A stretch of DNA of 64,000 nt from a bacterium (GTDB lineage: Bacteria > Patescibacteriota > Minisyncoccia > Phycocordibacterales > UBA2100). Below, piece by piece: positions 3,288 through 51,116 of this stretch. The translations under genes and the position numbers were made by a program. Every line of letters begins with the position of its first letter. The first letter of the stretch is position 1. The DNA lies in NCBI GenBank assembly GCA_030674455.1, contig JAUSGQ010000044.1, positions 13,080-77,079 on the forward strand, given 5' to 3'. The notes under the pieces were generated by a model that was given only the letters and a program-made list of their open reading frames with translations, was not told where the DNA came from and did no database searches.

Positions 3288-3295
3288 ATTTTGAT

Positions 3296-3345
3296 GAAGC
3301 TCCAAAATCCAAGCTCCAAATCTCAAACAAAAAGAATGCAAAACT
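3296..3345 (+). repeat. ~50-bp repeat copy 1 (gaAGCTCCAAAATCcAAGCTCCAAATCtcaaacaaaaagaat..)
   Basis: Near-identical to 4645..4700 and inverted relative to 3711..3760. Contains a tandem 13-mer AAGCTCCAAAWYC. Confidence 0.7.
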
Positions 3346-3710
3346 CATAACTTAGATAAAATGGAGCTAAAAATCTTTAATAACTCGATTGATTCTCTGA
3401 TTAAACCATCGCGCTCCACGCCAAGCTCTTCTGGTATCTGTTCGAACATTTGCAACCAATATCGCGTTTCTTTAGCTTCCTTTCGACAAATCTTTACGCG
3501 CATACCAAAGTCTTTTTTACTCAGAGACTCGTTGGCCTCGATATAATTCGCACCAACATATCCCGAAGAGCGAACCACTTGCTTTGCGTCTTCATTGTTT
3601 ACGATATCTCTTGGCAACTTTTTGATGAAACGTCTGACATTCAGCGCGAGAAGTCGCGTGCGTTCTTCTAAATCATTTTTGTATTGTTTATGTTCTTGAG
3701 GTTTATTCAT
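3345..3710 (-). CDS. four-helix-bundle protein (23S rRNA IVS-encoded protein / bAvd-like family)
   Basis: 121 aa. Family motifs such as QMFEQIPEELGVERDGLIRESIELLKIF, GYVGANYIEANES and RYWL. Bracketed by inverted copies of a ~45-bp repeat. Confidence 0.8.
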   Translation of the reverse strand: MNKPQEHKQYKNDLEERTRLLALNVRRFIKKLPRDIVNNEDAKQVVRSSGYVGANYIEANESLSKKDFGMRVKICRKEAKETRYWLQMFEQIPEELGVERDGLIRESIELLKIFSSILSKL

Positions 3711-3760
3711 TTTGAGTTTGTTTGGATCTTGGAGCTTGAGTTTTGGAGCTTCTACTTTAT
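3711..3760 (-). repeat. ~50-bp repeat copy 2 (inverted); forms the 5' leader of the four-helix-bundle gene
   Basis: Reverse complement reads gaagctccaaaactcaagctccaagatccaaacaaactcaaa followed by ATG. Confidence 0.7.
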
Positions 3761-4636: not shown

Positions 4637-4644
4637 ATTTTATT

Positions 4645-4700
4645 AAATCCCAAAATCCAAGCTCCAAATCTCAAACAAAAAGAATTCAAAACTCATAATT
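4645..4700 (+). repeat. ~50-bp repeat copy 3
   Basis: ccaaaatccaagctccaaatctcaaacaaaaagaattcaaaactcataat. Sits between the metG stop and the DMT start. Confidence 0.7.
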
Positions 4701-4717
4701 TCGAAGAAACGGAGTTT

Positions 4718-6223
4718 TTACTCTTTGCGCGGAAAGAGGTTCTCGGGCTTTTTATTCCTTTTTATTGCATCAAGAATCTTCTCACTAGTTGATGGCATGC
4801 AGGGAGCAAGAAGGTAAGCAATTGAAGCTACGTCCCTCACAAATACAGATAAAACAAGACGCCCAAATTGAGGATCTTGTTTAATGATTTTAAACGGTTC
4901 TTTTACGGATATAGCTTTGTCTAACTCTTGAATTCTATTCCATATACTATCCATTGCGCGACTTACCTCGAAGGTTTCGAGGGCTTGTTTATACTTTTTG
5001 ATATATTCCTCATCAACATAAACATTCATATCTGGTAGCTCAGCTGGACTATCGAGGTATTTCTCTGACAGGGCCATGACTCGAGACACAAAGTTGCCTA
5101 ATCCGTTAGCAAGATTGGCGTTGTAGGCTTCCTTAAATTTCTCCATCGTGAAATCGGAATCTTCGAACGGATGAATATGACGCGCGAGATAGTAGCGCAA
5201 AGCATCAGCGCCGTATTCATCCACTATCGCTATCGGGTCGATGACATTTCCGAGCGATTTGGACATTTTCTGGCCGCCGACATTAATGAAACCGTGAATG
5301 AGTATTTGTTTTGACGGGGGCAAACCGGCCGACATGAGCATCGCCTGCCACATCGCCGCCTGTTGCCGTATCTGGTCTTTCCCAGCCATTTGAATGCCGT
5401 TTGGCCGTTCAACTGTTCCCCAAAACTTGGTGAAGTTTGCCTCGTCGTCAGGCCACCCGAGTGTTGAAATGTAATTTATGAGCGCATCAAACCAGACGAA
5501 CATCACATGCCCTGGATCATCCGGAACTGGAACGCCCCATGGCATTTTCTTTTTGAGGCGGGAAATGCTGAAGTCTTCCAGTCCCGTTTCTACAAATTTC
5601 TTTATCTCGTTGAAACGAAAATCCGGCACTACCAAATCCGGCTGCTTCTTGTAAAGCTCAAGCAGCTCCTTTTGATACTTTGACCAGCGGAAAAAATAGT
5701 TCTCCTCGTTGATGAGTTCGATTTCAAGGTTCGGATGTATCGGGCATCGGCCGTCCACGAGTTCCGAATCCGTTTTTTCCAATTCGCACCCGACGCAATA
5801 TTTCAGCTGATAATTTTTCTTGTAGATGTCGCCTTTTTTGAGACATCGGCGCCAAAATTCCTGCGCCGCCGCTTTGTGGTCTGCATCGGTAGTGCGAATA
5901 AAGTGCAGGTCTGGATAGAGATTCAGCTTCTCTTTGAGATTCCGGAATTTGTCGGCGTACTCGTCCACATACTTTTGCGTGTTTTTCCCCTCTTCAAGCG
6001 CTTTGCGATGAATTTTGATTCCGTGTTCGTCCGTCCCAGTATTAAAGAAGACTTCGTCCCCGCAGAGCTTGTGATACCGCGCAGCGATATCCGCGTGAAC
6101 TATCTCAAGCGCGAAACCGATATGCGGTTCCGCGTTCACATATGGAAGGGTGGTCGTGAGATAAAAGTTTTTGCTTGCCCCGTTAGAGGCAGGTCGCGAC
6201 TGTGTAGATTTCTGTGAAGCCAT
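4718..6223 (-). CDS. metG: methionine--tRNA ligase
   Basis: HIGH-type motif (PHIGF), KMSKS, and zinc-knuckle cysteines. ATG at 6221-6223 (MASQKST..) preferred; the longer ORF to 6298 uses TTG. The N-terminus is encoded inside a duplicated inverted-repeat module. Confidence 0.9.
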   Translation of the reverse strand: MASQKSTQSRPASNGASKNFYLTTTLPYVNAEPHIGFALEIVHADIAARYHKLCGDEVFFNTGTDEHGIKIHRKALEEGKNTQKYVDEYADKFRNLKEKLNLYPDLHFIRTTDADHKAAAQEFWRRCLKKGDIYKKNYQLKYCVGCELEKTDSELVDGRCPIHPNLEIELINEENYFFRWSKYQKELLELYKKQPDLVVPDFRFNEIKKFVETGLEDFSISRLKKKMPWGVPVPDDPGHVMFVWFDALINYISTLGWPDDEANFTKFWGTVERPNGIQMAGKDQIRQQAAMWQAMLMSAGLPPSKQILIHGFINVGGQKMSKSLGNVIDPIAIVDEYGADALRYYLARHIHPFEDSDFTMEKFKEAYNANLANGLGNFVSRVMALSEKYLDSPAELPDMNVYVDEEYIKKYKQALETFEVSRAMDSIWNRIQELDKAISVKEPFKIIKQDPQFGRLVLSVFVRDVASIAYLLAPCMPSTSEKILDAIKRNKKPENLFPRKE

Positions 6224-6294
6224 GGGATTAGTCAGGTGAGAATGAGCAACTTGAGATTGGAAATTGTTTTGCGCGACCGCGGCCTCTAATGGGG
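6177..6294 (-). promoter_or_regulatory. start-codon-spanning inverted-repeat module, copy A (CCCCGTTAGAGGC...GCCTCTAATGGGG) at metG
   Basis: 13-nt arms ~85 nt apart. Downstream arm encodes SRPASNG of MetRS. Second copy at 50178..50293. Confidence 0.6.
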
Positions 6295-6300
6295 ACAATG

Positions 6301-7359
6301 TTAATCCTCATTACTGGCGAACTTACGCTTGCTCTCGACATCCTTGATAAATTCTTGGAGAGCACCGGCCATTGGTACAGAAAGAAGTATGCCTAAAAAG
6401 CCCGCCAATTTCGCCCCCACGATGAGCGCCAAAATAACGAGAAGCGGAGGAACACCGACCACGCGAGTTACGACCAACGGATAAATCAGATGATTCTCAA
6501 ACTGCTGGGCAATGATGTACAAAGCAACGGTCAGCAATCCGAGTGTTGCGCCCCCGTCGACAAATCCGATGATAATTGCGGGGACGGAAGCAAGCGTTGG
6601 GCCGAATACGGGAATAATCTCAAATACCGCAGCAACGACGGCAAGAAAGAGACTGTGCTTTACTCCCAAAATCGTAAGGCCGAGATAAATCAGGACTCCC
6701 ATAATAACCGCGAGGAGGAGCTGCCCTTGCATCCATAGTCCGATTTTGTGCTGGGAACGGTTCCAGAGATTTAGAACGTATGTCTCATATTTTCTTGGGG
6801 TGACAATGCGCAGGAAATCCGTTACCCCTGTCTCAATCACGGCAAAATAAAATGAGAGGACGATGATTAGAATGAATGAAAGAACTCCTCCGAATATTTT
6901 GCTGACCGCGCTGAATGCATTGCCGAACGTGTCGCCTAGATTCAACACGTTGCGCACGGTATCCATGATTTCGTTCGTGGCTGCGCTTGGCGTAGCGACG
7001 CCCAAAATCCGCGCATAGTCATCAAATGCTCCCACGCGGCTGAACGCCTCAAGATAACTCGGGAGCGAAGCGACGAACGTCGCCAAATCCTCCAATACTG
7101 ACGGCAAAAAGAAATAGAAAATCCCAAAAAATACGCAGAATAAAAGAATGTAAATGATTATGACGGAGAGAAGCCGAGGCACTTTCCGCTTTACCAATCC
7201 CCTGATACCCGGCTCCATCGCTGATGCGAACACTACGGCAGTCACAACGACAAGCACGAGGTCGCGCAGGTAAAACAAAAGCCAAGCTCCGACGAGCAAA
7301 ACAACGATTTTTATGACCGTACCAAGCGTTATGGAGATGTTAAGCGGTCGGGATTCCAT
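6301..7359 (-). CDS. AI-2E family transporter (PerM/UPF0118)
   Basis: 352 aa polytopic membrane protein with typical AI-2E topology and conserved C-terminal region. Confidence 0.8.
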   Translation of the reverse strand: MESRPLNISITLGTVIKIVVLLVGAWLLFYLRDLVLVVVTAVVFASAMEPGIRGLVKRKVPRLLSVIIIYILLFCVFFGIFYFFLPSVLEDLATFVASLPSYLEAFSRVGAFDDYARILGVATPSAATNEIMDTVRNVLNLGDTFGNAFSAVSKIFGGVLSFILIIVLSFYFAVIETGVTDFLRIVTPRKYETYVLNLWNRSQHKIGLWMQGQLLLAVIMGVLIYLGLTILGVKHSLFLAVVAAVFEIIPVFGPTLASVPAIIIGFVDGGATLGLLTVALYIIAQQFENHLIYPLVVTRVVGVPPLLVILALIVGAKLAGFLGILLSVPMAGALQEFIKDVESKRKFASNED

Positions 7360-12090: not shown

Positions 12091-12094
12091 GCGG

Positions 12095-12130
12095 AGCAGG
12101 TTATAGGTTTTAGGTTATAGGTTTTAGGGA
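12095..12130 (-). promoter_or_regulatory. AGGTTATAGGTTTTAGG tandem motif between ileS stop and recO start (overlaps ileS last codons)
   Basis: aggttataggttttaggttataggttttaggg. Confidence 0.4.
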
Positions 12131-15094
12131 AATCTTTGTATTCGTTGCTTTTTGGATAGCATCGAGATTTTTTTCGATAACAGCACGGTTTTCTTGCGCG
12201 ACCGTAATGGAAACACTCCCGCGTTCTCCCGCTCTCATCTTTGCCGCTTTGCGTGCGTCTTGCACAAGGCGCACGACATCCCGCACAATTCCCTCTTCCT
12301 TTAACTCCGGCGTAAGTTCAATATCAAGCGATACAACGGATGTCCCGCCATCAGAGCTTTCCAACACGACTTCTTTTACGTTGACTTCATCGGCAATGAG
12401 CGGCGCCACATCCTTCCAAAAAGGAATTTCTGCCCCTTTGTGCTTTATGGTGAGCTTTGCGAGCGGCTGGCGAACTTTAATTCCCGCTTCTGAACGCTGC
12501 ATCAGAGCCATCGTGACAAAACCTCTTGCGGCCATCATGACGGCTAAAATTGCGGGCGCATCAAAATCAAGTTTCGGCATTTCCGGCCACGACGCGAGGT
12601 GTACGCTCTCCTCGTCTTCTTCCTCGCGAACATCCTGGAACAAATGCTCGGCAAGAAACGGCATAGACGGAGCAATGACCCGCGAGAGCGTGTGGAGCAC
12701 ATATCGCAATGTTGCGAGAGCGGCCTTTTTGTCTGCTCCGTCCTCTTTAATTCGAACGCGCGAGCGGCGCAAGTACCAAACGGAAAGGTCGTCAATAAAA
12801 AGCGCGAGCGGACGCACCGCCTTGTCCAACTGATACTTTTCATATCCTTCGGTAGTTTCTCCTATCAAAGCCGCGAGGCGGGTTAGAATCCATCTGTCCA
12901 AAATATTCGTACTCTTATAGTCGCGCGGGGTATCGTTTTCATAAAGTTTATAAAACGCGAGTACATTATTGAGCCGTCCGATATTTTTCTTTGCGACTTC
13001 ATTCACTCCGCTTTCCGCAAAGCACAAGTTTTCGGCTTGCACGACTGGCGATGATAATAGATAGAGCCGTAACGCGTCCGCGCCGTATTTATCAACAACC
13101 TCCATCGGGTCGGGATAATTATTGAGCTTTTTCGACATTTTCTTGCCGTCTTCGGCCATGACGATGCCTGTCACGATGCAGTGCTTGAATGCCTCCTTGT
13201 CGAAGAGCGCGCCCATGAGTACGTGCTGGTAGTAAAACCACGCGCGGCACTGGTCCTGCGCCTCGGCGATGAAATCAGCAGGTACGCGTTTTTTTAACGT
13301 CGCTTCGTTTTCCTTCGGGTAGTGGAGAATAGCAAACGGCACCGAGCCGGAATCAAACCATGTGTCCAGCACATCAGGAATCCTCTTCATTTTTCCGCCA
13401 CACTCGCACGATACCGTAATCTCATCAACAACATCCTTGTGAAGGTCTGTAACTTTTGTCCCGCTCGCTTTTTCTAGCTCTAGAGCAGAACCGAAAACTC
13501 GCTCCGCTTTGCACTTTTCGCATCTCCATATGGGAATGGTATTTGCCCAAAAGCGCTGGCGTGAAATTGACCAGTCGCGCGCGCCTTTGAGCCATTCGCC
13601 GAACCTTCCATCCTTGATGTGCGCCGGAGACCATTCGATATTTTCCGCAGTTTTCAAGAGTTTGTCTTTGATTTTCGTGACCGCAACAAACCACGAGGAT
13701 GTGGCATAGTTGAGAAGCGGCGTATCACAGCGCCAACAATGCGGATATGAGTGCGTAATATTTTCTTTTAAAAAGAGTGTTCCATGTTCCTGCAAATATT
13801 TCAGTATCGCAATATCCGCGCCAAGCCGAACCTTATCGTCTTCAGATTGAGGTTTAACCTCAATTCCCGCGAAATCAGCCACTTCCGGCCTGAATGTTCC
13901 GTCCATATTGACATGCTGAACGAATGGCAAATTCTTTTCTTTGCCAAGGGCCATGTCGTCTTCACCGAAAGCAGGAGCGATATGCACGATGCCGGTTCCC
14001 GTTTCTGTCGTCACGAAGTCTGCGGCATAAACTTTCCAACCGTTCTCGCGATTCTTGAGCGATTCATCTTTTGAGTAGTAATCAAAGAGAGGTTCGTATT
14101 CAAGGCCGACAAGTGCGTTTCCTTTTATTTTTTGCTTTATCTCAAATCTTTCTGGCACTCTTTCAAGCGCAACAATGTACTGTTCATCGTCATTCAACGA
14201 CATTCCAACATTCTCAAGAATGTTGGAATGTTCCGAGGAAATGGCGGAGGTGAGCGCATATGTAATATCAGCTCCAACCGCAAGAGCAACGTTCCCGGGC
14301 AGAGTCCACGGAGTCGTCGTCCACGCGAGTAGGTACACTTCGCCTTTCAATCCGAGCTTTTCCGGATTCTTTACCTTGAACTTTACCGTCACGGAAATAT
14401 CCTTCACATCCTTGTACCCGTCAGCAACTTCGCCCTGGCTCAATGTCGTCTCACAGCGCGGGCAAATGTGCATCGAGCGATAACTTTCGTAAATAAGTCC
14501 GTCGTCATAGAGCTTCTTGAAAGCCCACCACTCGCTCTCCATGTAGGCGAAGTCCATCGTGCGGTATGGATTCTCCATGTCGGCCCATCGGCCGAAGCGC
14601 GGAATGATGCGCTCCCATTCGTGAATGAATGTGAATATGCGCTCTCGGCAGAGGTCATTAAATTTCTTCACGCCCATCGCTACGATGTCTTTCTTCGATT
14701 TTGTGCCTATTTCTTTTTCGACGATGTTTTCGATAGGAAGCCCGTGGCAGTCCCAACCCCACTGACGCTCGACGTGAAATCCCTGCATCGTTTTATAGCG
14801 CGGAATTACGTCTTTAACCGCGCTCTGCAGAAGATGCCCGTAGTGCGGAAGCCCTGTAGCAAAAGGCGGGCCATCATAAAAAACGTAGTCGCCCTTTGGC
14901 GCGCTTCGCTCAAGCGATTTCTTGAAAATGTCATTTTTGAGCCAAAACTCCAAAATAGTTTCCTCGCGCAACGCTGTCTCGGATTTCTTCCCTTGCCCTC
15001 CTGTAGCTTTACTGTGTCCGTCCGTAGCCTTGTGCGGAGGAGGAGCGGAGGAGGGCTCGCGCTTCGCAGTTTCGCTCTTTGGAACCTCTTTCAT
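12110..15094 (-). CDS. ileS: isoleucine--tRNA ligase
   Basis: 994 aa with HYGH, KMSKK and an editing domain. The ~45-aa low-complexity N-terminal extension may be upstream of the true start. Confidence 0.9.
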   Translation of the reverse strand: MKEVPKSETAKREPSSAPPPHKATDGHSKATGGQGKKSETALREETILEFWLKNDIFKKSLERSAPKGDYVFYDGPPFATGLPHYGHLLQSAVKDVIPRYKTMQGFHVERQWGWDCHGLPIENIVEKEIGTKSKKDIVAMGVKKFNDLCRERIFTFIHEWERIIPRFGRWADMENPYRTMDFAYMESEWWAFKKLYDDGLIYESYRSMHICPRCETTLSQGEVADGYKDVKDISVTVKFKVKNPEKLGLKGEVYLLAWTTTPWTLPGNVALAVGADITYALTSAISSEHSNILENVGMSLNDDEQYIVALERVPERFEIKQKIKGNALVGLEYEPLFDYYSKDESLKNRENGWKVYAADFVTTETGTGIVHIAPAFGEDDMALGKEKNLPFVQHVNMDGTFRPEVADFAGIEVKPQSEDDKVRLGADIAILKYLQEHGTLFLKENITHSYPHCWRCDTPLLNYATSSWFVAVTKIKDKLLKTAENIEWSPAHIKDGRFGEWLKGARDWSISRQRFWANTIPIWRCEKCKAERVFGSALELEKASGTKVTDLHKDVVDEITVSCECGGKMKRIPDVLDTWFDSGSVPFAILHYPKENEATLKKRVPADFIAEAQDQCRAWFYYQHVLMGALFDKEAFKHCIVTGIVMAEDGKKMSKKLNNYPDPMEVVDKYGADALRLYLLSSPVVQAENLCFAESGVNEVAKKNIGRLNNVLAFYKLYENDTPRDYKSTNILDRWILTRLAALIGETTEGYEKYQLDKAVRPLALFIDDLSVWYLRRSRVRIKEDGADKKAALATLRYVLHTLSRVIAPSMPFLAEHLFQDVREEEDEESVHLASWPEMPKLDFDAPAILAVMMAARGFVTMALMQRSEAGIKVRQPLAKLTIKHKGAEIPFWKDVAPLIADEVNVKEVVLESSDGGTSVVSLDIELTPELKEEGIVRDVVRLVQDARKAAKMRAGERGSVSITVAQENRAVIEKNLDAIQKATNTKISLKPIT

Positions 15095-17934: not shown

Positions 17935-17985
17935 TTGTGGATTATGCGCTAAAGGCGAGTCGCGGTCGAGGCATAAGATATGCGT

Positions 17986-18062
17986 GTCATTGCGAGCTAT
18001 GCGAAGCAATCTAGAGGACTCTGTTGAATCATTCTGGATTGCTTCGCTGCGCTCGCAATGAC
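17986..18062. repeat. palindromic repeat family member a (GTCATTGCGAGCtatGCGAAGCAATC...GATTGCTTCGCtgcGCTCGCAATGAC)
   Basis: 77-bp near-perfect hairpin downstream of the 18081..18731 gene. Family members also at 26488, 30089, 40403 and a degenerate one at 31296. Confidence 0.7.
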
Positions 18063-18080
18063 AGCACGTCCGATTCGTTA

Positions 18081-18731
18081 TTATGACGTGATCCGTTTGA
18101 TTGCAGAAAAGGCGCGATCGATATCTTTGTCAGCAAAAATAGTGCTGAATTCTGTCCCGATAGACATGACTTCCACGAGACTGATGCCATCCTCCGCAAT
18201 CGCTTTCAAAATCGGGTAGTACAGCCCCGGCACATTTAAGCTCGGCTCCGGCAGGCGCATGGTAATGGCCGAGAGGCCGCCCACTCGTTTCAAATACTTC
18301 TGATTGTCGAACGATGCCACCACTTCTTTTTCAATCTCTTGGCTCACGATAAGAAGCGACTCGTAGAGTCCGCGTGAAAAGTTGAGGAACACGCCTTTTT
18401 TATTTTTTGCGATGCGCGAGATCTTTCCTAATACGCCGGATAGATCTGCCGAGTTCGGAAAAACGAACTGCACCAAATTCGAGCGCACCGTGATGTCGCT
18501 CATCTGTTTTAAAAATCGCGTTCCGTACGGAACAACTTTGTAATCTTTCGCTATCCGGTGGAGTGCCATCGCGATTGACCCTTCGGAAACTTCCTCAAGC
18601 AAGATTTTCTCCACTTCAGGTTTTATCCTGCGGGCGATTTGCGCGTTGTTGGCCAACCCCTCGGCCATCGCCTCGGCTAGGAAGGGCGACCGGTGGATTA
18701 TGCCTTCAACGACTTGGCTTACAGTTCTCAT
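18081..18731 (-). CDS. hypothetical protein (possible ACT-like regulatory domain at C-terminus)
   Basis: 216 aa, divergent from asd-lysC. The C-terminus ISLVEVMSIGTEFSTIFADKDIDRAFSAIKRI resembles aspartokinase ACT ends. Its start codon coincides with the end of MITE copy 1. Confidence 0.5.
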   Translation of the reverse strand: MRTVSQVVEGIIHRSPFLAEAMAEGLANNAQIARRIKPEVEKILLEEVSEGSIAMALHRIAKDYKVVPYGTRFLKQMSDITVRSNLVQFVFPNSADLSGVLGKISRIAKNKKGVFLNFSRGLYESLLIVSQEIEKEVVASFDNQKYLKRVGGLSAITMRLPEPSLNVPGLYYPILKAIAEDGISLVEVMSIGTEFSTIFADKDIDRAFSAIKRITS

Positions 18732-18871
18732 ACCCGGTTAGTACAATTTCGAATAATTCCTGCCGTAGATGCGCCAGCGAATATTTGGAAAGACTGCTTA
18801 ATCAATTTTCTTTTCATATGATGTTGATTTGTTCATAACAAGGCGATTCGAAATTGTCCTACCGGGCATAT
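18729..18871 (+). mobile_element. MITE copy 1 (gene-less derivative of the GIY-YIG TIR element) with CATA target-site duplication
   Basis: TIRs CCCGGTTAGTACAATTTCGAAT (18733..18754) and ATTCGAAATTGTCCTACCGGG (18846..18866). Flanking direct repeats CATA at 18729-18732 and 18867-18870. The interior keeps an MPGRTISNR... remnant of the GIY-YIG ORF. Confidence 0.8.
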
Positions 18872-18983: not shown

Positions 18984-20081
18984 ATGGCAAAAACAACACA
19001 AAAACTTTCCGTAGGAATTCTCGGCGCCACCGGCATGGTCGGCCAGAGATTCATAACATTGCTTGAAAACCACCCATGGTTTGAGGTACGTGCGGTTGCC
19101 GCATCAAGGAGCTCTGCGGGAAAGACCTACGCGGAAGCGGTTAAGGGCCGCTGGAAATATCCGACGCCGATTCCTTCGAGCGTGCAAGACTTAATCGTCT
19201 ACTCCGCCCCCGACGACGTGGAGAAGATAGTGAATCATGTGGACTTCGTATTCTCGGCAATTGAAATGGACAAGCATGCAATCCAAACCCTTGAAGAGTT
19301 GTACGCTTCGCGCGGAGTGCCGGTAGTTTCCAACAACTCCGCTCACCGATGGACAGCCGATGTGCCGATGATACTGCCCGAAGTAAATGCGTCCCATCTC
19401 GCCATGATTCCCATCCAGCAAAAAAATCGCGGTTGGAAGACGGGATTCATTGTCGTCAAACCGAACTGTTCGGTGCAATCATATATTCCCGCGCTAGAGG
19501 CGCTCAAACGTTTTGGTCCGCAGAAAGTGATTGTTTCAACTCTTCAGGCAATTTCGGGTGCAGGAAAAACCTTTGAAACAATGCCTGAAATCCTCGACAA
19601 CGTTATTCCCTACATCGGGGGCGAGGAAGAGAAATCGGAAAAAGAACCGATGAAAATCTGGGGTAGCATTGTGAAAGGAAAATTCAAACTCGCTACCGCG
19701 CCGAAAATCTCGGCCACCTGCATCCGAGTTCCCGTTGCCGACGGGCACATGGCATCTGTCGCGGTTTCATTCAAAACAAAACCGACCCGAGACGCAATCC
19801 TTAAAGCGTGGCGAACATACAAAAGCCCGCTCTCGGGGCTCGGCCTTCCATCAGCACCTGAAAAATTCCTGACGTACTTCGAGGAAGATAATCGCCCGCA
19901 GACAAAACTCGATCGCGACATCGGGCGCGGCATGGGTGTCTCCGTCGGCCGTCTGCGCGAAGACCCGATACTGGGATGGAAATTTATTTCGCTTTCTCAC
20001 AACACCATCCGCGGTGCAGCAGGCGGAGCCGTCCTCGGAGCAGAACTCTTAAAAGCCAAAGGATACCTGAAAGCCAGATAA
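18984..20081 (+). CDS. asd: aspartate-semialdehyde dehydrogenase
   Basis: [14 protein letters not shown].. N-terminus and an active-site Cys region. Confidence 0.9.
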
Positions 20082-20089
20082 ATTAATGT

Positions 20090-21445
20090 ATGGAAAAAAC
20101 TCCCAGCAACATCGTCATAAAATTCGGCGGCACTTCGGTCGCTACCAAAGAAGCGGTCCACGCAATCATCGCGATAGTTAAACGATACCGGAAATCGAAT
20201 CCCGTTGTCGTTGTTTCCGCCCTTCGCGGCGTAACCGAAGGATTGCTCGGGCTTTCCAAATGCCCTAAAGCCCAGCTTCCAGGCCGTATTTCGGCTCTGC
20301 GTGCCATGCATCAAAAATTGGCTTCCGACCTCTTCCCTACAGATAAAGACGTGGCCGAGGTGATGGCATATGTGGATGAGCAGCTCGCCGCAACGGAAAA
20401 AGTCGCGCGCAAAGGACGATTCAATCCCGCAGCTATGGACCAGCTCGTATCCGCCGGAGAAATCATGTCGTCATTTCTCATCGCAAAAGCGCTTGAGACG
20501 AACGACATCGCGTCAAGGCAGGTAGTCTCGACAGAAATAGTTGCTACCGACGACAATTTCATGCAGGCGGAATTCCAACCGAAAGAGACGGAGAAAAATG
20601 CGCGGAGAATTCTTGCCCCGCTTATTCGCCGCGGCATCGTTCCTGTCGTTACCGGATTCTTGGGTTCAACAAAAAAAGGACAGACGACCACGCTCGGACG
20701 CGGCGGCTCTGATTACTCCGCATCTATAATCGGGCGCTCGCTAGATGCAAAAGAAATACAAATTTGGACGGATGTCGACGGAATCTTTACGGCCGACCCG
20801 CGCGTCGTTAAAAACGCGCGCATTATTTCCGACATATCGTACCGCGAGGCGTCCGAAATGGCCGCGTTCGGAGCAAAAGTCTTGCACCCGAGAACCATCA
20901 GGCCGGCAGTCGAAAAAAACATTCCCGTGCGCGTACTCAACACTTTTAATCTTAAAGCTTCGGGAACCCTGGTGAGCCCGCGCTCAACCGGAACGGGACT
21001 CAAAGCGATAGCGTTCAAAAAAAACGTTGTGCTCGTCAACGTTTACTCGGATTCAATGCTTTTCTCGCGCGGATTTCTCGCCCGCATGTTCGAGGTATTC
21101 GCACGGCATCAGATCTCAATCGATTTGGTCTCGGTCTCCGAGGTAAGCGTTTCTGTAACTTTAGATAGCAACAACGGACACCTTGATGCCGCGGTAAAAG
21201 AACTGGAAGCGTTCTCCAAAGTGAGCGTACACAAAGATAGCTTCGGGATGATATCGCTCATAGGAGAGGGAATCGCCTCTGCGCAGGATATAATGACGAA
21301 TGTATCCGCACAGTTTAGCCGTCATCGAATTCCCCTGCGGATGATCTCTATGGGAGCGTCTGACATCAATATCAGTTTGGTAATACCCGCGGCAGATGTC
21401 GTGCGCGCGGCCAACATGGTTCACGATGAATTCTTGAGAAACTAA
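20090..21445 (+). CDS. lysC: aspartate kinase
   Basis: VIKFGGTSV.. N-terminus and C-terminal ACT domains. Confidence 0.9.
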   Translation: MEKTPSNIVIKFGGTSVATKEAVHAIIAIVKRYRKSNPVVVVSALRGVTEGLLGLSKCPKAQLPGRISALRAMHQKLASDLFPTDKDVAEVMAYVDEQLAATEKVARKGRFNPAAMDQLVSAGEIMSSFLIAKALETNDIASRQVVSTEIVATDDNFMQAEFQPKETEKNARRILAPLIRRGIVPVVTGFLGSTKKGQTTTLGRGGSDYSASIIGRSLDAKEIQIWTDVDGIFTADPRVVKNARIISDISYREASEMAAFGAKVLHPRTIRPAVEKNIPVRVLNTFNLKASGTLVSPRSTGTGLKAIAFKKNVVLVNVYSDSMLFSRGFLARMFEVFARHQISIDLVSVSEVSVSVTLDSNNGHLDAAVKELEAFSKVSVHKDSFGMISLIGEGIASAQDIMTNVSAQFSRHRIPLRMISMGASDINISLVIPAADVVRAANMVHDEFLRN

Positions 21446-21448
21446 TTG

Positions 21449-21588
21449 TATGCCCGGTAGGACAATTTCGAATCGCCTCATATGACTATTCGCCATCACA
21501 TGAAAAGAAGATTGTTGGAGCGGTCGTTACAGATGTCCGCAGGTGTAACTACGGCAGAAATTATTCGAAATTGTACTAACCGGGTATG
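21449..21588 (-). mobile_element. MITE copy 2 (inverted relative to copy 1) with TATG target-site duplication; exactly fills the lysC-dapB spacer
   Basis: TIRs CCCGGTAGGACAATTTCGAAT (21453..21473) and ATTCGAAATTGTACTAACCGGG (21563..21584). TATG at 21449-21452 and 21585-21588; the latter contains the dapB ATG. Confidence 0.8.
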
Positions 21589-22326
21589 AACATTGCACTG
21601 CTAGGACATGGAAATATGGGGCTGGAGATCGAACGGCTTGTTCGGGCTTCCGGCACGCACACAGTTTCCGTAATAGGAATGGAGGAGCCAAGCGGCGCGA
21701 TAGATACAGCTGGCCTCAAAAACGCCGAAGTTGTAATCGATTTTACGTCGCCGGAAATAGTGATGAACGATATTCGCACCGTGGCAAAAGAGGGGAAAAA
21801 TCTCGTCGTGGGAACTACGGGATGGCAGGAACACCTGCCGGAGGTGGAAAAAATCGTTCGCGAGAGCGGAATTGGCCTGATTTACGGCCAGAATTTCTCG
21901 ATAGGCGCGAATATCTTTTTCCGCGCGGTAGCTCATGCGACAAAACTATTCTCTGCATTTAAAGACTACGATGTGTACGGTTTGGAAATTCACCATGCCG
22001 GGAAAAAAGACAGTCCATCGGGGACTGCCCTGCGGACCGCGCAAGAAATTCTGCAGAACTCAAGCACCAAAAAAATCCTAACGACAGGTAAACTCGACAG
22101 AAAAGTACGTCCGGAAGAACTGCACTTCGCGTCCGTGCGAGGCGGCGTGAATCCCGGATTCCACGAAGTGGTTTTCGACAGCCCCGCCGATGCGGTTACT
22201 ATTTCTCATTCCGCGCACAACAGGGAGGGATTTGCGCAGGGCGCTATCCTTGCGGCAGAATTCATTCAAGGGAAAAAAGGCCTGTTTACATTTGATGACG
22301 TGATGAAAGCTCATGGCATAAAATAA
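21586..22326 (+). CDS. dapB: 4-hydroxy-tetrahydrodipicolinate reductase
   Basis: NAD-binding N-terminus (IALLGHGNMG) and HHAGKKDSPSGTA motif. Confidence 0.9.
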   Translation: MNIALLGHGNMGLEIERLVRASGTHTVSVIGMEEPSGAIDTAGLKNAEVVIDFTSPEIVMNDIRTVAKEGKNLVVGTTGWQEHLPEVEKIVRESGIGLIYGQNFSIGANIFFRAVAHATKLFSAFKDYDVYGLEIHHAGKKDSPSGTALRTAQEILQNSSTKKILTTGKLDRKVRPEELHFASVRGGVNPGFHEVVFDSPADAVTISHSAHNREGFAQGAILAAEFIQGKKGLFTFDDVMKAHGIK

Positions 22327-26487: not shown

Positions 26488-26565
26488 GTCATTGCGAGCA
26501 ACGCGAAGCAATCCAGTGGATTGTACAAATTACTCTAGTTTGCTTCGCTAAGCTCGCAAAGACGG
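26488..26565. repeat. palindromic repeat family member b (GTCATTGCGAGCaacGCGAAGCAATCC...TTTGCTTCGCtaaGCTCGCAAAGAC)
   Basis: Directly downstream of rplK. Confidence 0.65.
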
Positions 26566-27738: not shown

Positions 27739-27740
27739 AG

Positions 27741-27775
27741 GGGTAGGTTATAGGTGTTAGGTTACAGGTTATAGG
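27741..27775 (-). promoter_or_regulatory. tandem AGGTTAYAGGT motif abutting the nusG start
   Basis: gggtaggttataggtgttaggttacaggttatagg. Confidence 0.4.
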
Positions 27776-27778
27776 AAA

Positions 27779-28060
27779 TTACGGAGTGGTTGTGTCGGAG
27801 GTTGTTGCCGCTGCAGGAGTTGTAGTCGAGAGATTGATATTATCAATCGTAACTGCCGGAACGTTTGCTACAGGCAGGGTTTCTAGCACGCTGCGCAATC
27901 CGGTAGTAAAAATGTAGTCAAAGAGGCCGAGGTATAGAGCAATGAAAACGGAAAGCAAAATGACGATTATCGTATACACGATGGTCTGAAGCTGCGTAGG
28001 CCAAGCCACGTGCCGTAATTCCCCGCGCGTATCTTTGAGGTACTGAAAGAAGGATGACAT
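27779..28060 (-). CDS. secE: preprotein translocase subunit SecE (with Thr-rich C-terminal tail)
   Basis: 93 aa. TRGELRHVAWPTQLQT followed by a TM helix. Position upstream of nusG-rplK. Confidence 0.7.
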   Translation of the reverse strand: MSSFFQYLKDTRGELRHVAWPTQLQTIVYTIIVILLSVFIALYLGLFDYIFTTGLRSVLETLPVANVPAVTIDNINLSTTTPAAATTSDTTTP

Positions 28061-28105
28061 AGGTTACAGGTGCTAGGTTTTAGGGAATAGGTTATAGGTT
28101 ATAGT
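28061..28105 (-). promoter_or_regulatory. tandem AGGTTAYAGG motif abutting the secE start
   Basis: aggttacaggtgctaggttttagggaataggttataggttatag. Confidence 0.4.
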
Positions 28106-28130
28106 AAATTCGTCAAAACTCTCCCTAATC

Positions 28131-40402: not shown

Positions 40403-40490
40403 GTCATTGCGAGGAATGAGGAGGAACGACGAATGACGAAGCAATCCAGGGTAACCTTCAGAACTCCTGGATTGCTTCGCTTCGCTCGAC
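40403..40490. repeat. palindromic repeat family member d (GTCATTGCGAGG...GAAGCAATCCAGG...CCTGGATTGCTTCGCTTCGCTCGAC)
   Basis: Sits between two convergent genes. Confidence 0.65.
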
Positions 40491-40503
40491 TCGACGAGTG
40501 TGA

Positions 40504-46180: not shown

Positions 46181-46865
46181 TTATCAGAAGACCGGTTCCG
46201 AATGGCAACGAAATGAATCTTATGAGCATAGATTCAATTTTTACAACAGCGAAAAAAATCGCGTTGAGTAAGCGCGGCATCCTCAAAGAGCTGTCGCCTG
46301 ACCTTCCCAAGAGGCGCATGAGCGCGGCAGGAATGAAAAGCAGCATGTTCCAGTAACTCGCGTATTCAACTTCAAATCCGGCGTCATTCAATACAGCGCG
46401 CATTGAGGCTTTCGTATACCTTCGGAAATGATGGTGGTTAACATCATGAATGCCCCAGAGAAATTGGAACGCGGGCACTGTTATTGCGAGGTGGCCGCCG
46501 CTCTTTAGCGCCCCGTGGGCTTTTACCAGAAACTCCCTGTCATGCTCGATGTGTTCAACAACATCAAATAGCCCTATCAAATCGTACGCTCGTCCCAGTG
46601 CCTCGCTTTCAGTTGATAATGCACGCAGATAGCCGCGCTTGCTGGCGGCTTCTCGCGCTTCCGCATCCGGCTCGTAGGCATATATATTCTTTCCGATGCG
46701 CGAAAGGTCTTTATACATTCCTCCGTAACCCGCGCCGAAATCAAGAACATCTTCTGCCCGCTTCGCGCCGCACTTCGCAAGCCCGGCGTGAATTGCCGCG
46801 GCACGGCCTCGGTACCACCAGGATTTCTCCATGTCACTCAAAAGTTTAAAAGCGTTTCTCTCCAT
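46155..46865 (-). CDS. class I SAM-dependent methyltransferase
   Basis: VLDFGAGYGG motif I. The start ATG lies inside the left terminus of the GIY-YIG element. Confidence 0.8.
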   Translation of the reverse strand: MERNAFKLLSDMEKSWWYRGRAAAIHAGLAKCGAKRAEDVLDFGAGYGGMYKDLSRIGKNIYAYEPDAEAREAASKRGYLRALSTESEALGRAYDLIGLFDVVEHIEHDREFLVKAHGALKSGGHLAITVPAFQFLWGIHDVNHHHFRRYTKASMRAVLNDAGFEVEYASYWNMLLFIPAALMRLLGRSGDSSLRMPRLLNAIFFAVVKIESMLIRFISLPFGTGLLIIARKRPQE

Positions 46866-47172
46866 ACCCGGTTAGTACAATTTCGAATTATTCCGTCCGT
46901 AATAATCTTTCAATCGCTTTGCAAGAAAGCGACGGCCTCCCGTGGTTTTGAAATATTGTTCTCGACGTTTTGCGTCAACCAGAGAACGACATGCTTCGTA
47001 GTACGCAAGTATAAAAGGCCGTCGTGGTGCTGTGGCAAAACTTTTACCCTGCTGGTGTTGATCCATGCGCTTTCGCAGATCACTCGTATATCCAATATAT
47101 TGCTTATAGTCTTTCATACTCTGCAAGACATAGACATAATAAAAGCGATTCGAAATTGTCCTACCGGGCATA
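46863..47172 (-). mobile_element. TIR-bounded GIY-YIG element (autonomous-looking copy): 22-bp terminal inverted repeats, 4-bp CATA target-site duplication, single 99-aa GIY-YIG gene
   Basis: TIR-L CCCGGTTAGTACAATTTCGAAT (46867..46888), TIR-R ATTCGAAATTGTCCTACCGGG (47148..47168). CATA at 46863-46866 and 47169-47172. The first 8 codons of the GIY-YIG ORF (MPGRTISN) are encoded by the TIR itself. Confidence 0.8.
46872..47171 (-). CDS. GIY-YIG nuclease family protein (YhbQ/UPF0213-like)
   Basis: YYVYVLQS..YIGYTSDLRKRMDQHQQGKS..RRPFILAYYEAC..AKRREQYFK matches the GIY-YIG motifs. Confidence 0.8.
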   Translation of the reverse strand: MPGRTISNRFYYVYVLQSMKDYKQYIGYTSDLRKRMDQHQQGKSFATAPRRPFILAYYEACRSLVDAKRREQYFKTTGGRRFLAKRLKDYYGRNNSKLY

Positions 47173-47174
47173 TA

Positions 47175-49395: not shown

Positions 49396-50223
49396 CTACA
49401 TTCTTCCATGATCATCCTCAATGCGCACGATGTCGTCCTCGCTGAAATCTCCGTAGGCAACTTCTACAACGACCCCACCGTACTTGGAGAACAGCCTGTG
49501 TACCTGCTTTTTCACGACCCGGAAGACTTCGCCTTTTTTGAGCGCGACCGTCCGCTTTCCGGAAGAATCATGAACAATCGCGGAAGCATCGCCTTCCACG
49601 AGCAACCACCACTCCTCGCGGTTATGGTGGTACTGCAGGCTCAAGCGTTGCGCCGGTTTTATGTAGATTGTTTTCAGGTTCCACCCTTCTCCGTTATCCC
49701 ATCCGTAATATTCACCCCACGGGCGCACCGTCTTGGATGCGTGGCGGCGCGAAGCCTTAATCATCCACGACGACGATTGCACTTTGCCGCCCTCGCCGAC
49801 GTTGAAAACCATTCTTGTGCCGAGCTTTTTGCATGTGGCTACTTCCGGTATGTTGCTTTTGAATCGGTCCCCGCCGTTGGCAAAAACAGCCGGCTTCAAT
49901 TTCTCTATCGCACGGCATACGCTCGTATCAACATCCCCCTTTTTGTGGTCGGTAATCACCACCTTATCTACAGTGGGCAACGAGCGCAGGAGTTCGGCCC
50001 GCTCTTTCTGCGGCATGAAAACAAATCCCTTTTTTGCCTTCAGCCAATGGTCATTATTGAGTATCACCACGAGTCTGTCGCCGAGCTTTCGGGCCTCCTT
50101 GAACATGCGGATGTGTCCGATATGCAGCGGATCAAAGCCACCGGAAACGGCTATCCAGCGAGTTGAGTTCTTCTTCACCCCGTTAGAGGCAGGGCGCGGT
50201 CGTTTTGATTCTTTGGTATTCAT
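49396..50223 (-). CDS. cytidylyl/adenylyltransferase (HIGH nucleotidyltransferase) fused to a cupin domain
   Basis: IAVSGGFDPLHIGHIRMF (HxGH), then a C-terminal cupin (..LQYHHNREEWWLLVEGDA..). The N-terminus MNTKESKRPRPASNG is encoded within the duplicated inverted-repeat module. Confidence 0.7.
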   Translation of the reverse strand: MNTKESKRPRPASNGVKKNSTRWIAVSGGFDPLHIGHIRMFKEARKLGDRLVVILNNDHWLKAKKGFVFMPQKERAELLRSLPTVDKVVITDHKKGDVDTSVCRAIEKLKPAVFANGGDRFKSNIPEVATCKKLGTRMVFNVGEGGKVQSSSWMIKASRRHASKTVRPWGEYYGWDNGEGWNLKTIYIKPAQRLSLQYHHNREEWWLLVEGDASAIVHDSSGKRTVALKKGEVFRVVKKQVHRLFSKYGGVVVEVAYGDFSEDDIVRIEDDHGRM

Positions 50224-50293
50224 ACTGACATCAATAGTATTGATACGTTGCCGTTCTTAAGATATGTAAGTGCGGCCGCGGCCTCTAACGGGG
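50178..50293 (-). promoter_or_regulatory. start-codon-spanning inverted-repeat module, copy B (CCCCGTTAGAGGC...GCCTCTAACGGGG) at the cytidylyltransferase-cupin gene
   Basis: Same arms with a diverged spacer. Downstream arm encodes RPRPASNG. Confidence 0.6.
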
Positions 50294-50372
50294 TTCATAT
50301 GAGGATTAAGATATCACACAACGAATCAAGAATGTACGAGGCAACCCCTGGGACTCCCCTGATAGTATCGCG

Positions 50373-51116
50373 TTATGATAAGCGCTTTATTTCATCGTCA
50401 AGAAACGCGAGAGTCTCCTCTTTGAGTATGTGCCGAACCTTTTGGAATTGATCGGGCAACAAAAGCACGTTGAGATCTTGGGTAATGATAGCGTCAGTAA
50501 CATGGCTCGAAATAAATGTGCGGAGCTCTTTCAAATATTCCAGGGCCGGCACTCCGCGCCGGTCCTGCAACACACCGCTGTCATAGGAGAAACCGTTCAG
50601 AAAGAAATGGTGGATGTCGTAGACATCACGCCCCGCGATGGAGCCGTGCCGCTCGTACCGATCCACGAGTGCAACGAGCTTGTGTGCAAACATTGTCCCA
50701 ATCGTCTGGCACGAAAATACTCGGTCAATATCCGCGAGTCGCACCTTCTCGATTTTATTGGCAGTACTCATGAGTGTCGTCGCCTCAAACTTAAGCGTAT
50801 TGCGCCTATGCTCGCCCGCCGGATACTTTAAGAAATATTGCGGCACCTCTTTGCTTGCGTCTTTCACGGTAAGCCCAATATCGGAAAAAGATTTCTCCAG
50901 TCGCTTTCGTATCGCGATTGTTTCATCCGCACTTCCGATATAATCAAAATCAAGGTCAACCGAAAAACGGTCGAGAAAATCGCGCATTGCAGCGCACGTC
51001 CCGCCTTTAAAAACGAGTACTTTCGTGAGGTTCGCGTCATCAGCGACTGCGCGCAGGACTCGGAACATCCACGCCTTGTGTATCGCGTCTTTTTTGTCGG
51101 GAAGGATCAGTGTCAT
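50373..51116 (-). CDS. AbiEii/AbiGii-family nucleotidyltransferase toxin (DUF1814)
   Basis: FKGGTCAAMRDFLDRFSVDLDFDY matches the GGT...RFSxDxDF signature. Confidence 0.7.
   Translation of the reverse strand: MTLILPDKKDAIHKAWMFRVLRAVADDANLTKVLVFKGGTCAAMRDFLDRFSVDLDFDYIGSADETIAIRKRLEKSFSDIGLTVKDASKEVPQYFLKYPAGEHRRNTLKFEATTLMSTANKIEKVRLADIDRVFSCQTIGTMFAHKLVALVDRYERHGSIAGRDVYDIHHFFLNGFSYDSGVLQDRRGVPALEYLKELRTFISSHVTDAIITQDLNVLLLPDQFQKVRHILKEETLAFLDDEIKRLS

Follow-up and report, generated by a model that had tools for sequence, protein, structure and literature searches.

The Correia elements of Neisseria (CREE/NEMIS) and the ERIC/YPAL-type elements of enterobacteria are MITEs, or miniature inverted-repeat transposable elements, of 100–150 bp that have terminal inverted repeats and make short duplications; as parts of the transcripts of neighbouring genes they form long hairpins in mRNAs, which can alter stability or expression. 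Correia elements duplicate TA, are essentially intergenic and provide promoters or RNase III sites. Transposons of the IS1380/piggyBac type make a 4-bp T..A duplication (TTAA for piggyBac) and have C-rich termini, 5'-CC(C)...GG(G)-3'. General points on Correia- and ERIC-type MITEs are covered in a review (PMC10969869), as are the Rickettsia palindromic elements (RPEs), which lie inside Rickettsia coding regions and do not replace the start codon (PMC10969869); TTAA specificity and seamless excision are described for piggyBac (PMC7351741). Here we analyse a module that occurs twice in a 64,000-nt stretch (the window) of contig JAUSGQ010000044.1 from the patescibacterial assembly GCA_030674455.1, once at the 5' end of metG (methionyl-tRNA synthetase, MetRS) and once at the start of a cytidylyltransferase-cupin gene. 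A preliminary description of this DNA had proposed a translational switch or binding site enclosing the start codon or, alternatively, a mobile module that donates a 5' untranslated region and an N-terminal peptide. Our analysis indicates that the second proposal was essentially right and that the module is, with high probability, a MITE (a small non-autonomous transposon) with a habit of replacing start codons.

Both copies of the module read on the minus strand, copy 1 (117 nt) at metG and copy 2 (116 nt) at the cytidylyltransferase-cupin gene, which confirms the shared module of ~115 nt on two minus-strand genes. The 13-mer GCCTCTAACGGGG, allowed up to two mismatches, matches the window five times against 0.93 expected, a count reached in none of 100 shuffles, and the two inverted pairs account for four of the five matches. 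In both copies the 13-mers are separated by 90–91 nt, rather than the ~85 nt first given. The ~13-bp GC-rich stem proposed earlier holds for the outer 13 bp, CCCC(A/G)TTAGAGGC / GCCTCTAACGGGG, but the pairing extends further: a bulge of 3–4 nt (CCT on the mRNA strand) is followed by a GC-rich inner stem, CGCGGTCGC/GCGACCGCG (general form CGCGG(T/C)CGC / GCGACCGCG-like), and the complementarity spans 22–25 nt per arm. Copy 1 has one arm mismatch, A.C in the mRNA sense (CCCCATTAG vs CTAACGGGG). Folding predicts strong mRNA-sense hairpins at both sites (−37.8 and −45.4 kcal/mol; z = −4.2 and −5.5). In both copies the loop ATG lies exactly 11 codons ahead of GCC TCT AAC GGG, and the near-identical N-terminal peptides reported earlier are correct for both proteins. 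Between the copies the arms are identical at 40 of 43 positions and the interiors at 42 of 80, so that arms are indeed conserved and spacers diverged; selection on the pairing, which had been argued from this contrast, is not needed for these two copies because they belong to different subfamilies. The reported lack of fit to a described RNA family also stands, as Rfam 15 gave no match in the window at gathering scores and none at E ≤ 1 around the copies. The right arms of the two copies (6166 vs 50166) are separated by exactly 44,000 nt and the left arms by 43,999, a spacing that we take to be coincidence.

Target-site duplications were assessed by lining up the flanks of 69 copies, from 66 loci found elsewhere (below) plus the window. 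An exact 4-bp direct repeat abuts CCCC...GGGG in 43 of the 69, and at least three of four positions agree in 51; the same comparison shifted by 1–6 nt yields 0–1 of 69, and no flanking repeats of 2, 3, 5 or 6 bp were found in these copies. The duplicated 4-mers vary (TGAA, TGGA, TCAA, TTGA, TTCA, TAAA, TATG, CAAG and others) around the consensus T-N-N-A, and copy 2 carries a TGAA/TGAA duplication. Terminal inverted repeats, adjoining duplication, small size, dispersed copies and orthologous empty sites are all present, and the parent insertion sequence alone was not found in the loci searched. As a MITE is defined by terminal inverted repeats, 4-bp duplications of variable sequence, small size and dispersal in subfamilies, we assign the module to this class. 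The inverted repeats and the 4-bp TNNA duplication together imply a cut-and-paste transposase acting in trans, which would be of the DDE type.

The 66 loci come from a pattern scan (CCCCRTTAGAGGC-N(75-105)-GCCTCTAAYGGGG) across 185,579 species genomes and have both arms 75–105 nt apart. Most lie in metagenome-assembled genomes (MAGs) of Patescibacteria, the ultra-small bacteria of the Candidate Phyla Radiation (CPR), namely Kaiser-, Adler-, Azam-, Wolfe-, Sung-, Campbell- and Paceibacteria as well as bins labelled Saccharibacteria; the hosts outside the CPR are Omnitrophota, Planctomycetota, Elusimicrobiota and Endomicrobiales. The maximum per MAG is 14 loci, in H32-bin145_1, which holds a 101–102-nt version with a conserved interior. 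An independent metagenome scan with the 22-nt left arm alone returned 42 loci with 45 copies in elements of 52–184 nt; one match had no right arm inside its 1.4-kb contig, and the others were all short elements. Element sizes range from 52 to 184 nt, mostly 101–123, with no transposase gene within. The outer 13 nt (CCCCGTTAGAGGC / GCCTCTAACGGGG) are common to all copies, and the CPR copies have 22–25-nt repeats; both window copies are of this lineage, which is common among Patescibacteria. They are members of different subfamilies, the interior of copy 1 being closest to the metG elements of loci L069 and L123 (0.73–0.74 identity).

Subfamilies with conserved interiors sit at unrelated genes and in different MAGs, and the interiors of L010 and L020, at different genes of one MAG, are 0.85 identical. 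Conservation of interiors across unrelated genes and inside one MAG is expected for transposition. The host genes (metG, valS, the cytidylyltransferase, a dxr-like gene and a PemK toxin among them) share no common function. In nearly all CPR copies the arms pair over 17–26 bp, subfamilies differ from one another by compensatory changes (GGTCGC/GCGACC vs GATCGC/GCGATC vs GTGCGC/GCGCAC; AGAGGC/GCCTCT vs AGAAGC/GCTTCT), and arm mismatches are A.C in the mRNA sense and G.U on the antisense strand only. In Planctomycetota and Omnitrophota, eight copies (L005, L014, L038, L040, L049, L053, L059 and L062) have one end, CCCCGTTAGAGGCAGG, that precedes a small hairpin of its own (for example GTCGCC-nnnn-GGCGAC); such units also occur solo. 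The non-CPR copies favour the target tgTCAAccc / gggTTGAca.

At the cytidylyltransferase-cupin gene the junctions read cat-A-TGAA / element / TGAA-GAAGAAC, so that removing the element and one TGAA restores an original start of ATG AAG AAG AAC (MKKN). This ATG now opens a 13-codon upstream open reading frame (uORF), MNPVRGRGRTYIS, which ends at a stop codon. Among the homologues listed (65–78% identical), 118 of 119 have no extension and typically start with MKK or similar, for example MKKNNALIRWVAVSGGFDP; the tag occurs in 2 of the 120 listed cytidylyltransferase-cupin proteins, the window's own entry counted. Locus L072 is an empty-site orthologue, reading ATGAAAAAGAAAAAC. In L073 a shorter relative (arms CCCCGTTAGAAG/CTTCTAACGGGG) lies within the same ATGAA, with a TGAA duplication, and is an independent hit by a different subfamily at the same site as copy 2. 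The same strain's empty site for copy 2 was also sought in metagenomes, with no match. Five homologues (P0131, P0137, P0150, P0170 and P0194) carry another recurrent in-frame N-terminal insert, WAPDLSAR(R/S)AATNR(S/H).., which is probably another translated repeat element in related genomes.

A comparison of orthologues, proposed in the preliminary description, was also informative for metG. Most of the closest 120 listed MetRS proteins lack the tag and begin M(S/G/A)K(N/A/P)FYLTTT, four of them exactly MSKNFYLTTT; the ..ASNG tag is present in 7 of the 120, the window protein included. Empty metG sites occur in L067 and L071, with the same gene order (AI-2E transporter, then metG), and filled ones in L069 and L123, which read cATGA / element / TGA(C/A)... 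The metG start in L120 holds another subfamily, whose arms have co-varied (AGAAGC/GCTTCT) and whose TGAA duplication is perfect; the copy in L121 is rearranged, and its left arm has been lost. In a neighbour-joining tree, metG genes that bear the element are interspersed with empty ones, and metG has received at least three different subfamilies. The window copy is atypical in having A at arm position 5 and in the codon after ..AAC GGG, which is GCA where its relatives have GTG. The regenerated GTG has therefore been lost from this copy and the junction cannot be the start, which must be either the internal ATG (6223) or an in-frame TTG (6298); the latter is an alternative because its frame is open through all 39 codons of the element. 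Of the two, the ribosome presumably uses the ATG.

When element and duplication were removed, 17 of 43 reconstructed sites fell on an ATG opening an open reading frame (ORF) of at least 80 aa, 2 on stop codons, 3 within genes and 21 elsewhere. The CCT bulge allowed 47 copies of the CPR lineage to be oriented, and in 18 of them the ATG overlaps the duplication (A/TGAA, A/TGGA, A/TGAG or A/TGAT at the junction). All 18 have one orientation (p = 8e-6), and in 16 an ORF of at least 100 aa follows. An internal ATG in the exit frame, with no stop before the element's end, is present in 17 of the 18, compared with 2 of 18 for the same frame at the opposite end (p = 6e-7). Because the top strand of the element ends in ...GGGG either way, and G/TG would be regenerated either way, the orientation bias needs another cause: either the gene survives by means of the internal ATG and its frame, or the element integrates directionally.

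Internal ATG and tag are particular to each subfamily and conserved in it (MKNQNNQKE..RPRPASNGV; MKNNHYKSG..RSRSASNGV; M(A/S)LQ..TRPRPASNGV), and the common RPASNG(V) peptide arises because the right inverted repeat (GCC TCT AAC GGG G) is translated. A protein search with the concatenated tags as query matched one protein, a PemK-family toxin carrying the tag, and the 44-aa translation of copy 1 had no match among 1.84 billion representative proteins. Two of the three frames are open through each arm (PVRG/PLEA and ASNG/PLTG), which makes in-frame intragenic copies possible, as in the rpoN-like gene of L014; such insertions are seen in L014, L030, L034, L040 and L054. In L003 and L051 the element lies within an ATGA start/stop overlap, where the duplicated TGA preserves the stop of the upstream gene and the element supplies the start of the downstream one.

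These features suggest how an insertion could be tolerated. The CPR lineage is polar, its internal ATG frame exiting through the right-hand repeat (..CCT GCC TCT AAC GGG G). On integration into A/TG(A/G)A the element duplicates TG(A/G)A and leaves the old ATG 5 nt upstream, where it opens only a short uORF (M-N/D/S-PVRGRGR..), while the element's last G and the duplicated TG rebuild an in-frame GTG. The internal ATG is then automatically in frame with the host gene, which would stay expressed and gain a hydrophilic N-terminal extension of 12–27 residues ending in ..R-P-(R-P)-A-S-N-G-V. On this reading the conserved arms are recognition sites for the transposase, and the 20-bp hairpin that surrounds the start codon on the mRNA arises as a by-product of inverted repeats, with a putative effect on expression. 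The start-codon mechanism is well supported descriptively; the start used and the reason for the preference are inferred.

The 5' context of the insertions adds further detail. The uORF from the old ATG, M-(N/D/S)-PVRGRGR.., has 7–37 codons and in three cases continues through the whole element and on into the gene; the distance between its stop and the internal ATG varies from −20 to +40 nt, a spread that shows no sign of tight coupling. Many host genes have a −10-like box 6–7 nt upstream of the ATG, which suggests leaderless or near-leaderless transcripts, in which the hairpin would lie at the very 5' terminus of the mRNA. An A at −11 is found in 23 of 35 host genes against 21 of 50 window genes (p = 0.047), an enrichment too weak for a claim, and leaderless transcription of the host genes is suggested as a lead. 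Scans for sigma-70 promoters and terminators around both window copies found no promoter within the elements.

Several observations weigh against the MITE assignment or the simplest version of it. No autonomous element or transposase was found in the 66 + 42 loci or in viral contigs, and no arm pair 1–3 kb apart enclosing a transposase-like ORF in the loci. Following up solo arms and more widely spaced arm pairs in the 66 loci yielded host genes only (an ABC-type binding protein, rpsM and others), all-against-all clustering of the ORFs of the loci revealed no multi-copy transposase, and a scan of viral contigs for the 16-nt end gave four single matches, which is chance level. Copy 1 at metG has no target-site duplication. 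The preference for start codons is also greater than tolerance would predict: only 13 of 7432 TNNA sites in the window are ATGAA/ATGGA gene starts (ORF of at least 80 aa), and with every coding insertion taken to be lethal they would still amount to ~1% of tolerated targets, against 40–60% observed. The enrichment is at least 30-fold over a model that tolerates only non-coding insertions, and a survival filter alone probably fails to explain it. Finally, arms are nearly invariant in insertions that look vertically inherited and whose host genes are saturated at 4-fold sites, where neutral decay of a dead transposon predicts otherwise.

This last point comes chiefly from valS, where the same element sits on the start codon (ATGGA / element / TGGAGC) in five lineages (L019, L032, L056, L086 and L098). 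The ValRS proteins of these lineages are 54–83% identical and their 4-fold sites are saturated (0.29–0.47 identity); valS interiors and upstream DNA are near random except for the pair L032/L098, whose interiors agree at 52 of 71 positions in the pairwise table and at 56 of 75 with other arm boundaries. Among L032, L056, L086 and L098, 2 of 92 arm positions differ (positions left free by the search patterns); searching with exact arms is itself a form of ascertainment that inflates the figures for arm conservation. For metG, the window and L069 have a 4-fold identity of 0.47, an interior identity of 0.74 and arms identical at 42 of 43 positions. An extended −10-like box, TGCTAAGAT, lies 6 nt upstream of the valS ATG in four of the five lineages and is less clear in L086, which suggests leaderless transcription of valS.

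Two accounts fit this arm conservation. The insertions may be old and inherited, with arms and partly interiors under purifying selection as a co-opted hairpin or protein site, or certain start codons may be hit repeatedly by members with identical ends. To this extent a weaker form of the earlier argument for selection on pairing survives, as the arms of the inherited-looking insertions change at a far lower rate than neutral sites do. That retained copies were secondarily co-opted as an mRNA hairpin is a tentative idea that we think somewhat doubtful. The same reserve applies to a broader, non-exclusive proposal, that start codons are actively targeted by the transposition machinery, that copies have been co-opted as a 5' expression module, or both; it may hold, but we would not expect it to. 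In the targeting variant the machinery might recognise the downstream edge of the open promoter complex at leaderless genes. In the co-option variant the module could combine a hairpin at the 5' terminus with a short uORF that begins at the old ATG and a loop that presents the start codon, and co-option of this kind would explain near-invariant arms in insertions across synonymously saturated lineages. If either were true, the element would amount to a self-contained mobile cassette for the start of genes, by which translation initiation is rewired and N-terminal tags are added across the genomes of CPR bacteria.

Among explanations that dispense with a MITE, a cis-regulatory mRNA element enclosing the start codon survives best, and as the primary nature of the module we consider it very unlikely. 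It is favoured by the strength of the hairpins predicted (−38 and −45 kcal/mol, with z between about −4 and −5.5), by the 17–26-bp pairing in nearly all CPR copies with its compensatory differences, and by the much better conservation of arms than interiors; compensatory change between subfamilies is, however, equally expected for inverted repeats bound by one transposase, and the arm mismatches, A.C in the mRNA sense and G.U only in the antisense, count against it. It is largely refuted as the origin by the target-site duplications and by the patchy presence among close orthologues with clean empty sites. The same element also occurs between genes, at stop codons and in frame inside ORFs (the rpoN-like gene) in several phyla, its host genes are functionally unrelated, and Rfam has no match even at E ≤ 1. 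The preliminary description held that further copies with terminal inverted repeats and target-site duplications would reclassify the module as a MITE, and such copies are what the genome scan returned.

Still less probable is a REPIN-like doublet of REP units mobilised by a RAYT (an IS200-like tyrosine transposase). The size of about 100–120 nt, the two inverted short conserved units and the single unit CCCCGTTAGAGGCAGG with its own small hairpin in Planctomycetota and Omnitrophota would suit this origin, but REP/REPIN and IS200/IS605 relatives make no duplications, whereas here 43 of 69 copies have exact 4-bp duplications of variable sequence; the arms also lack a conserved GTAG head, and a superficial look at the loci revealed no RAYT-like gene. 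Least credible is a site-specific recombination substrate, either a start-codon-flipping inverton or an integron attC-like site, which the inverted repeats around a roughly 90-bp segment holding the start codon and the arm motifs GTTAGAG and CTCTAAC, near the attC core consensus GTTRRRY/RYYYAAC, might recall, but which conflicts with the identical orientation in 18 of 18 gene-start copies, the 4-bp duplications flanking the whole unit, complementarity reaching 4 bp past the putative core, core boxes in reverse order relative to the gene compared with integron cassettes, single housekeeping genes as hosts with no cassette array, and no recombinase or integrase among the eight window proteins scanned against Pfam.

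Table 1. Coordinates of the two MITE copies in the window and of associated features.
Feature	Position	Strand	Remark
MITE copy 1, 117 nt, 5' end of metG	6178..6294	-	flanks ..cattgt / caagca.., no recognisable target-site duplication
Copy 1 left (gene-distal) terminal inverted repeat, CCCCATTAGAGGC + CGCGGTCGCG	6272..6294	-	
Copy 1 right (gene-proximal) terminal inverted repeat, TCGCGACC-T-GCCTCTAACGGGG	6178..6199	-	translated ..RPASNG
Copy 1 loop ATG, in frame with metG, likely start, product MASQKSTQSRPASNGASKNFYLTTT	6221..6223	-	protein P0001 annotated from here
In-frame TTG 2 nt upstream of copy 1, alternative start	6296..6298	-	frame open across the element's 39 codons
Stop of upstream AI-2E transporter gene	6301-6303		
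metG (methionyl-tRNA synthetase) coding sequence from internal ATG	4718..6223	-	
MITE copy 2, 116 nt, start-codon region of cytidylyltransferase-cupin gene	50178..50293	-	
Copy 2 left terminal inverted repeat, CCCCGTTAGAGGC + CGCGGCCGC	50272..50293	-	
Copy 2 right terminal inverted repeat, CGACCGCGCCCT + GCCTCTAACGGGG	50178..50202	-	translated RPRPASNG
Copy 2 original ATG (50296-50298) overlapping upstream TGAA duplication (50294-50297)	50294..50298	-	
Copy 2 downstream TGAA duplication (50174-50177)	50174..50178	-	with the element's last G (50178) gives in-frame GTG, then AAG AAG AAC
Copy 2 loop ATG, in frame, product MNTKESKRPRPASNGVKKN...	50221..50223	-	
Cytidylyltransferase-like + mannose-6-P isomerase/cupin gene from internal ATG	49396..50223	-	Pfam assignments

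The gene directly upstream of copy 2 (50373-51116, minus strand) encodes an AbiEii-type nucleotidyltransferase toxin (Pfam PF08843, E = 3.6e-19). The window also holds other repeats. Inverted repeats of 105 nt (81% complementary) at 18728-18832 and 21485-21589 bracket the asd and aspartokinase pair (18984-21445), with a third partial copy near 46863-47173, and probably represent a further family of repeats or MITEs. The EamA transporter gene just downstream of metG lies between the copies of an 89-nt direct repeat (82%) at 3290-3378 and 4638-4726, one of which overlaps the region of the metG stop; an inverted partial copy lies at 3717-3752. A recurrent palindrome, GTCATTGCGAGC...GCTCGCAATGAC, with arms of about 30 nt that are 87% complementary, occurs at 17985-18063, 26488-26563 and 40403-40495 and resembles a REP or a terminator. 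Heptamer-periodic clusters, (AGGTTAT/AGGTTTT)n, are intergenic and found on both strands (35-77, 531-569, 12093-12135, 27740-27780 and 28049-28115).

Taken together, the conclusion that the module is a known kind of element, a MITE, from an apparently undescribed family with an unusual start-codon habit, and is not a new riboswitch-like leader, is well supported. Literature searches, within the limits of the searchable library, found neither the arm sequences nor such a MITE in CPR bacteria, and the family appears undescribed. The assignment removes a tempting false candidate for a riboswitch or leader, explains the recurrent ..RPRPASNGV N-termini of predicted proteins in Patescibacteria, and indicates that start-codon annotation there needs care. 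It also illustrates how a transposon can persist in extremely compact genomes, the occupancy of a start codon being offset by the regenerated GTG, the element's own ATG and the peptide. The element provides a natural system in which to study the turnover of start codons, the way in which essential enzymes (MetRS, ValRS) gain N-terminal extensions and possibly also the conversion of leaderless to leadered mRNAs.

Compared with described systems, the element resembles REPIN/RAYT systems in its inverted pairs of short conserved units, roughly 100-nt hairpin and many dispersed copies; REPINs are, however, extragenic and make no duplications, whereas here duplications are the rule and many copies are translated. 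With IS1380/piggyBac-type transposons it shares a 4-bp duplication with T..A ends and C-rich termini, a likeness that we treat as a lead only; the target here is TNNA rather than TTAA, and the repeat sequence is not known to be related. Like Correia- and ERIC-type MITEs it places a long hairpin into mRNAs, but those families are not known to target the start codon or to donate an N-terminal peptide. It also resembles the RPEs, small (about 100–150 bp) palindromic mobile repeats that are tolerated through an in-frame peptide in unrelated proteins (PMC10969869). This likeness is functional, and RPEs were compared by description only. The element described here differs in lying mainly on the start codon, in having its own ATG, a regenerated GTG and clear 4-bp duplications, and in occurring in CPR bacteria and other phyla, and it can be viewed as a start-codon counterpart of the in-frame Rickettsia elements.

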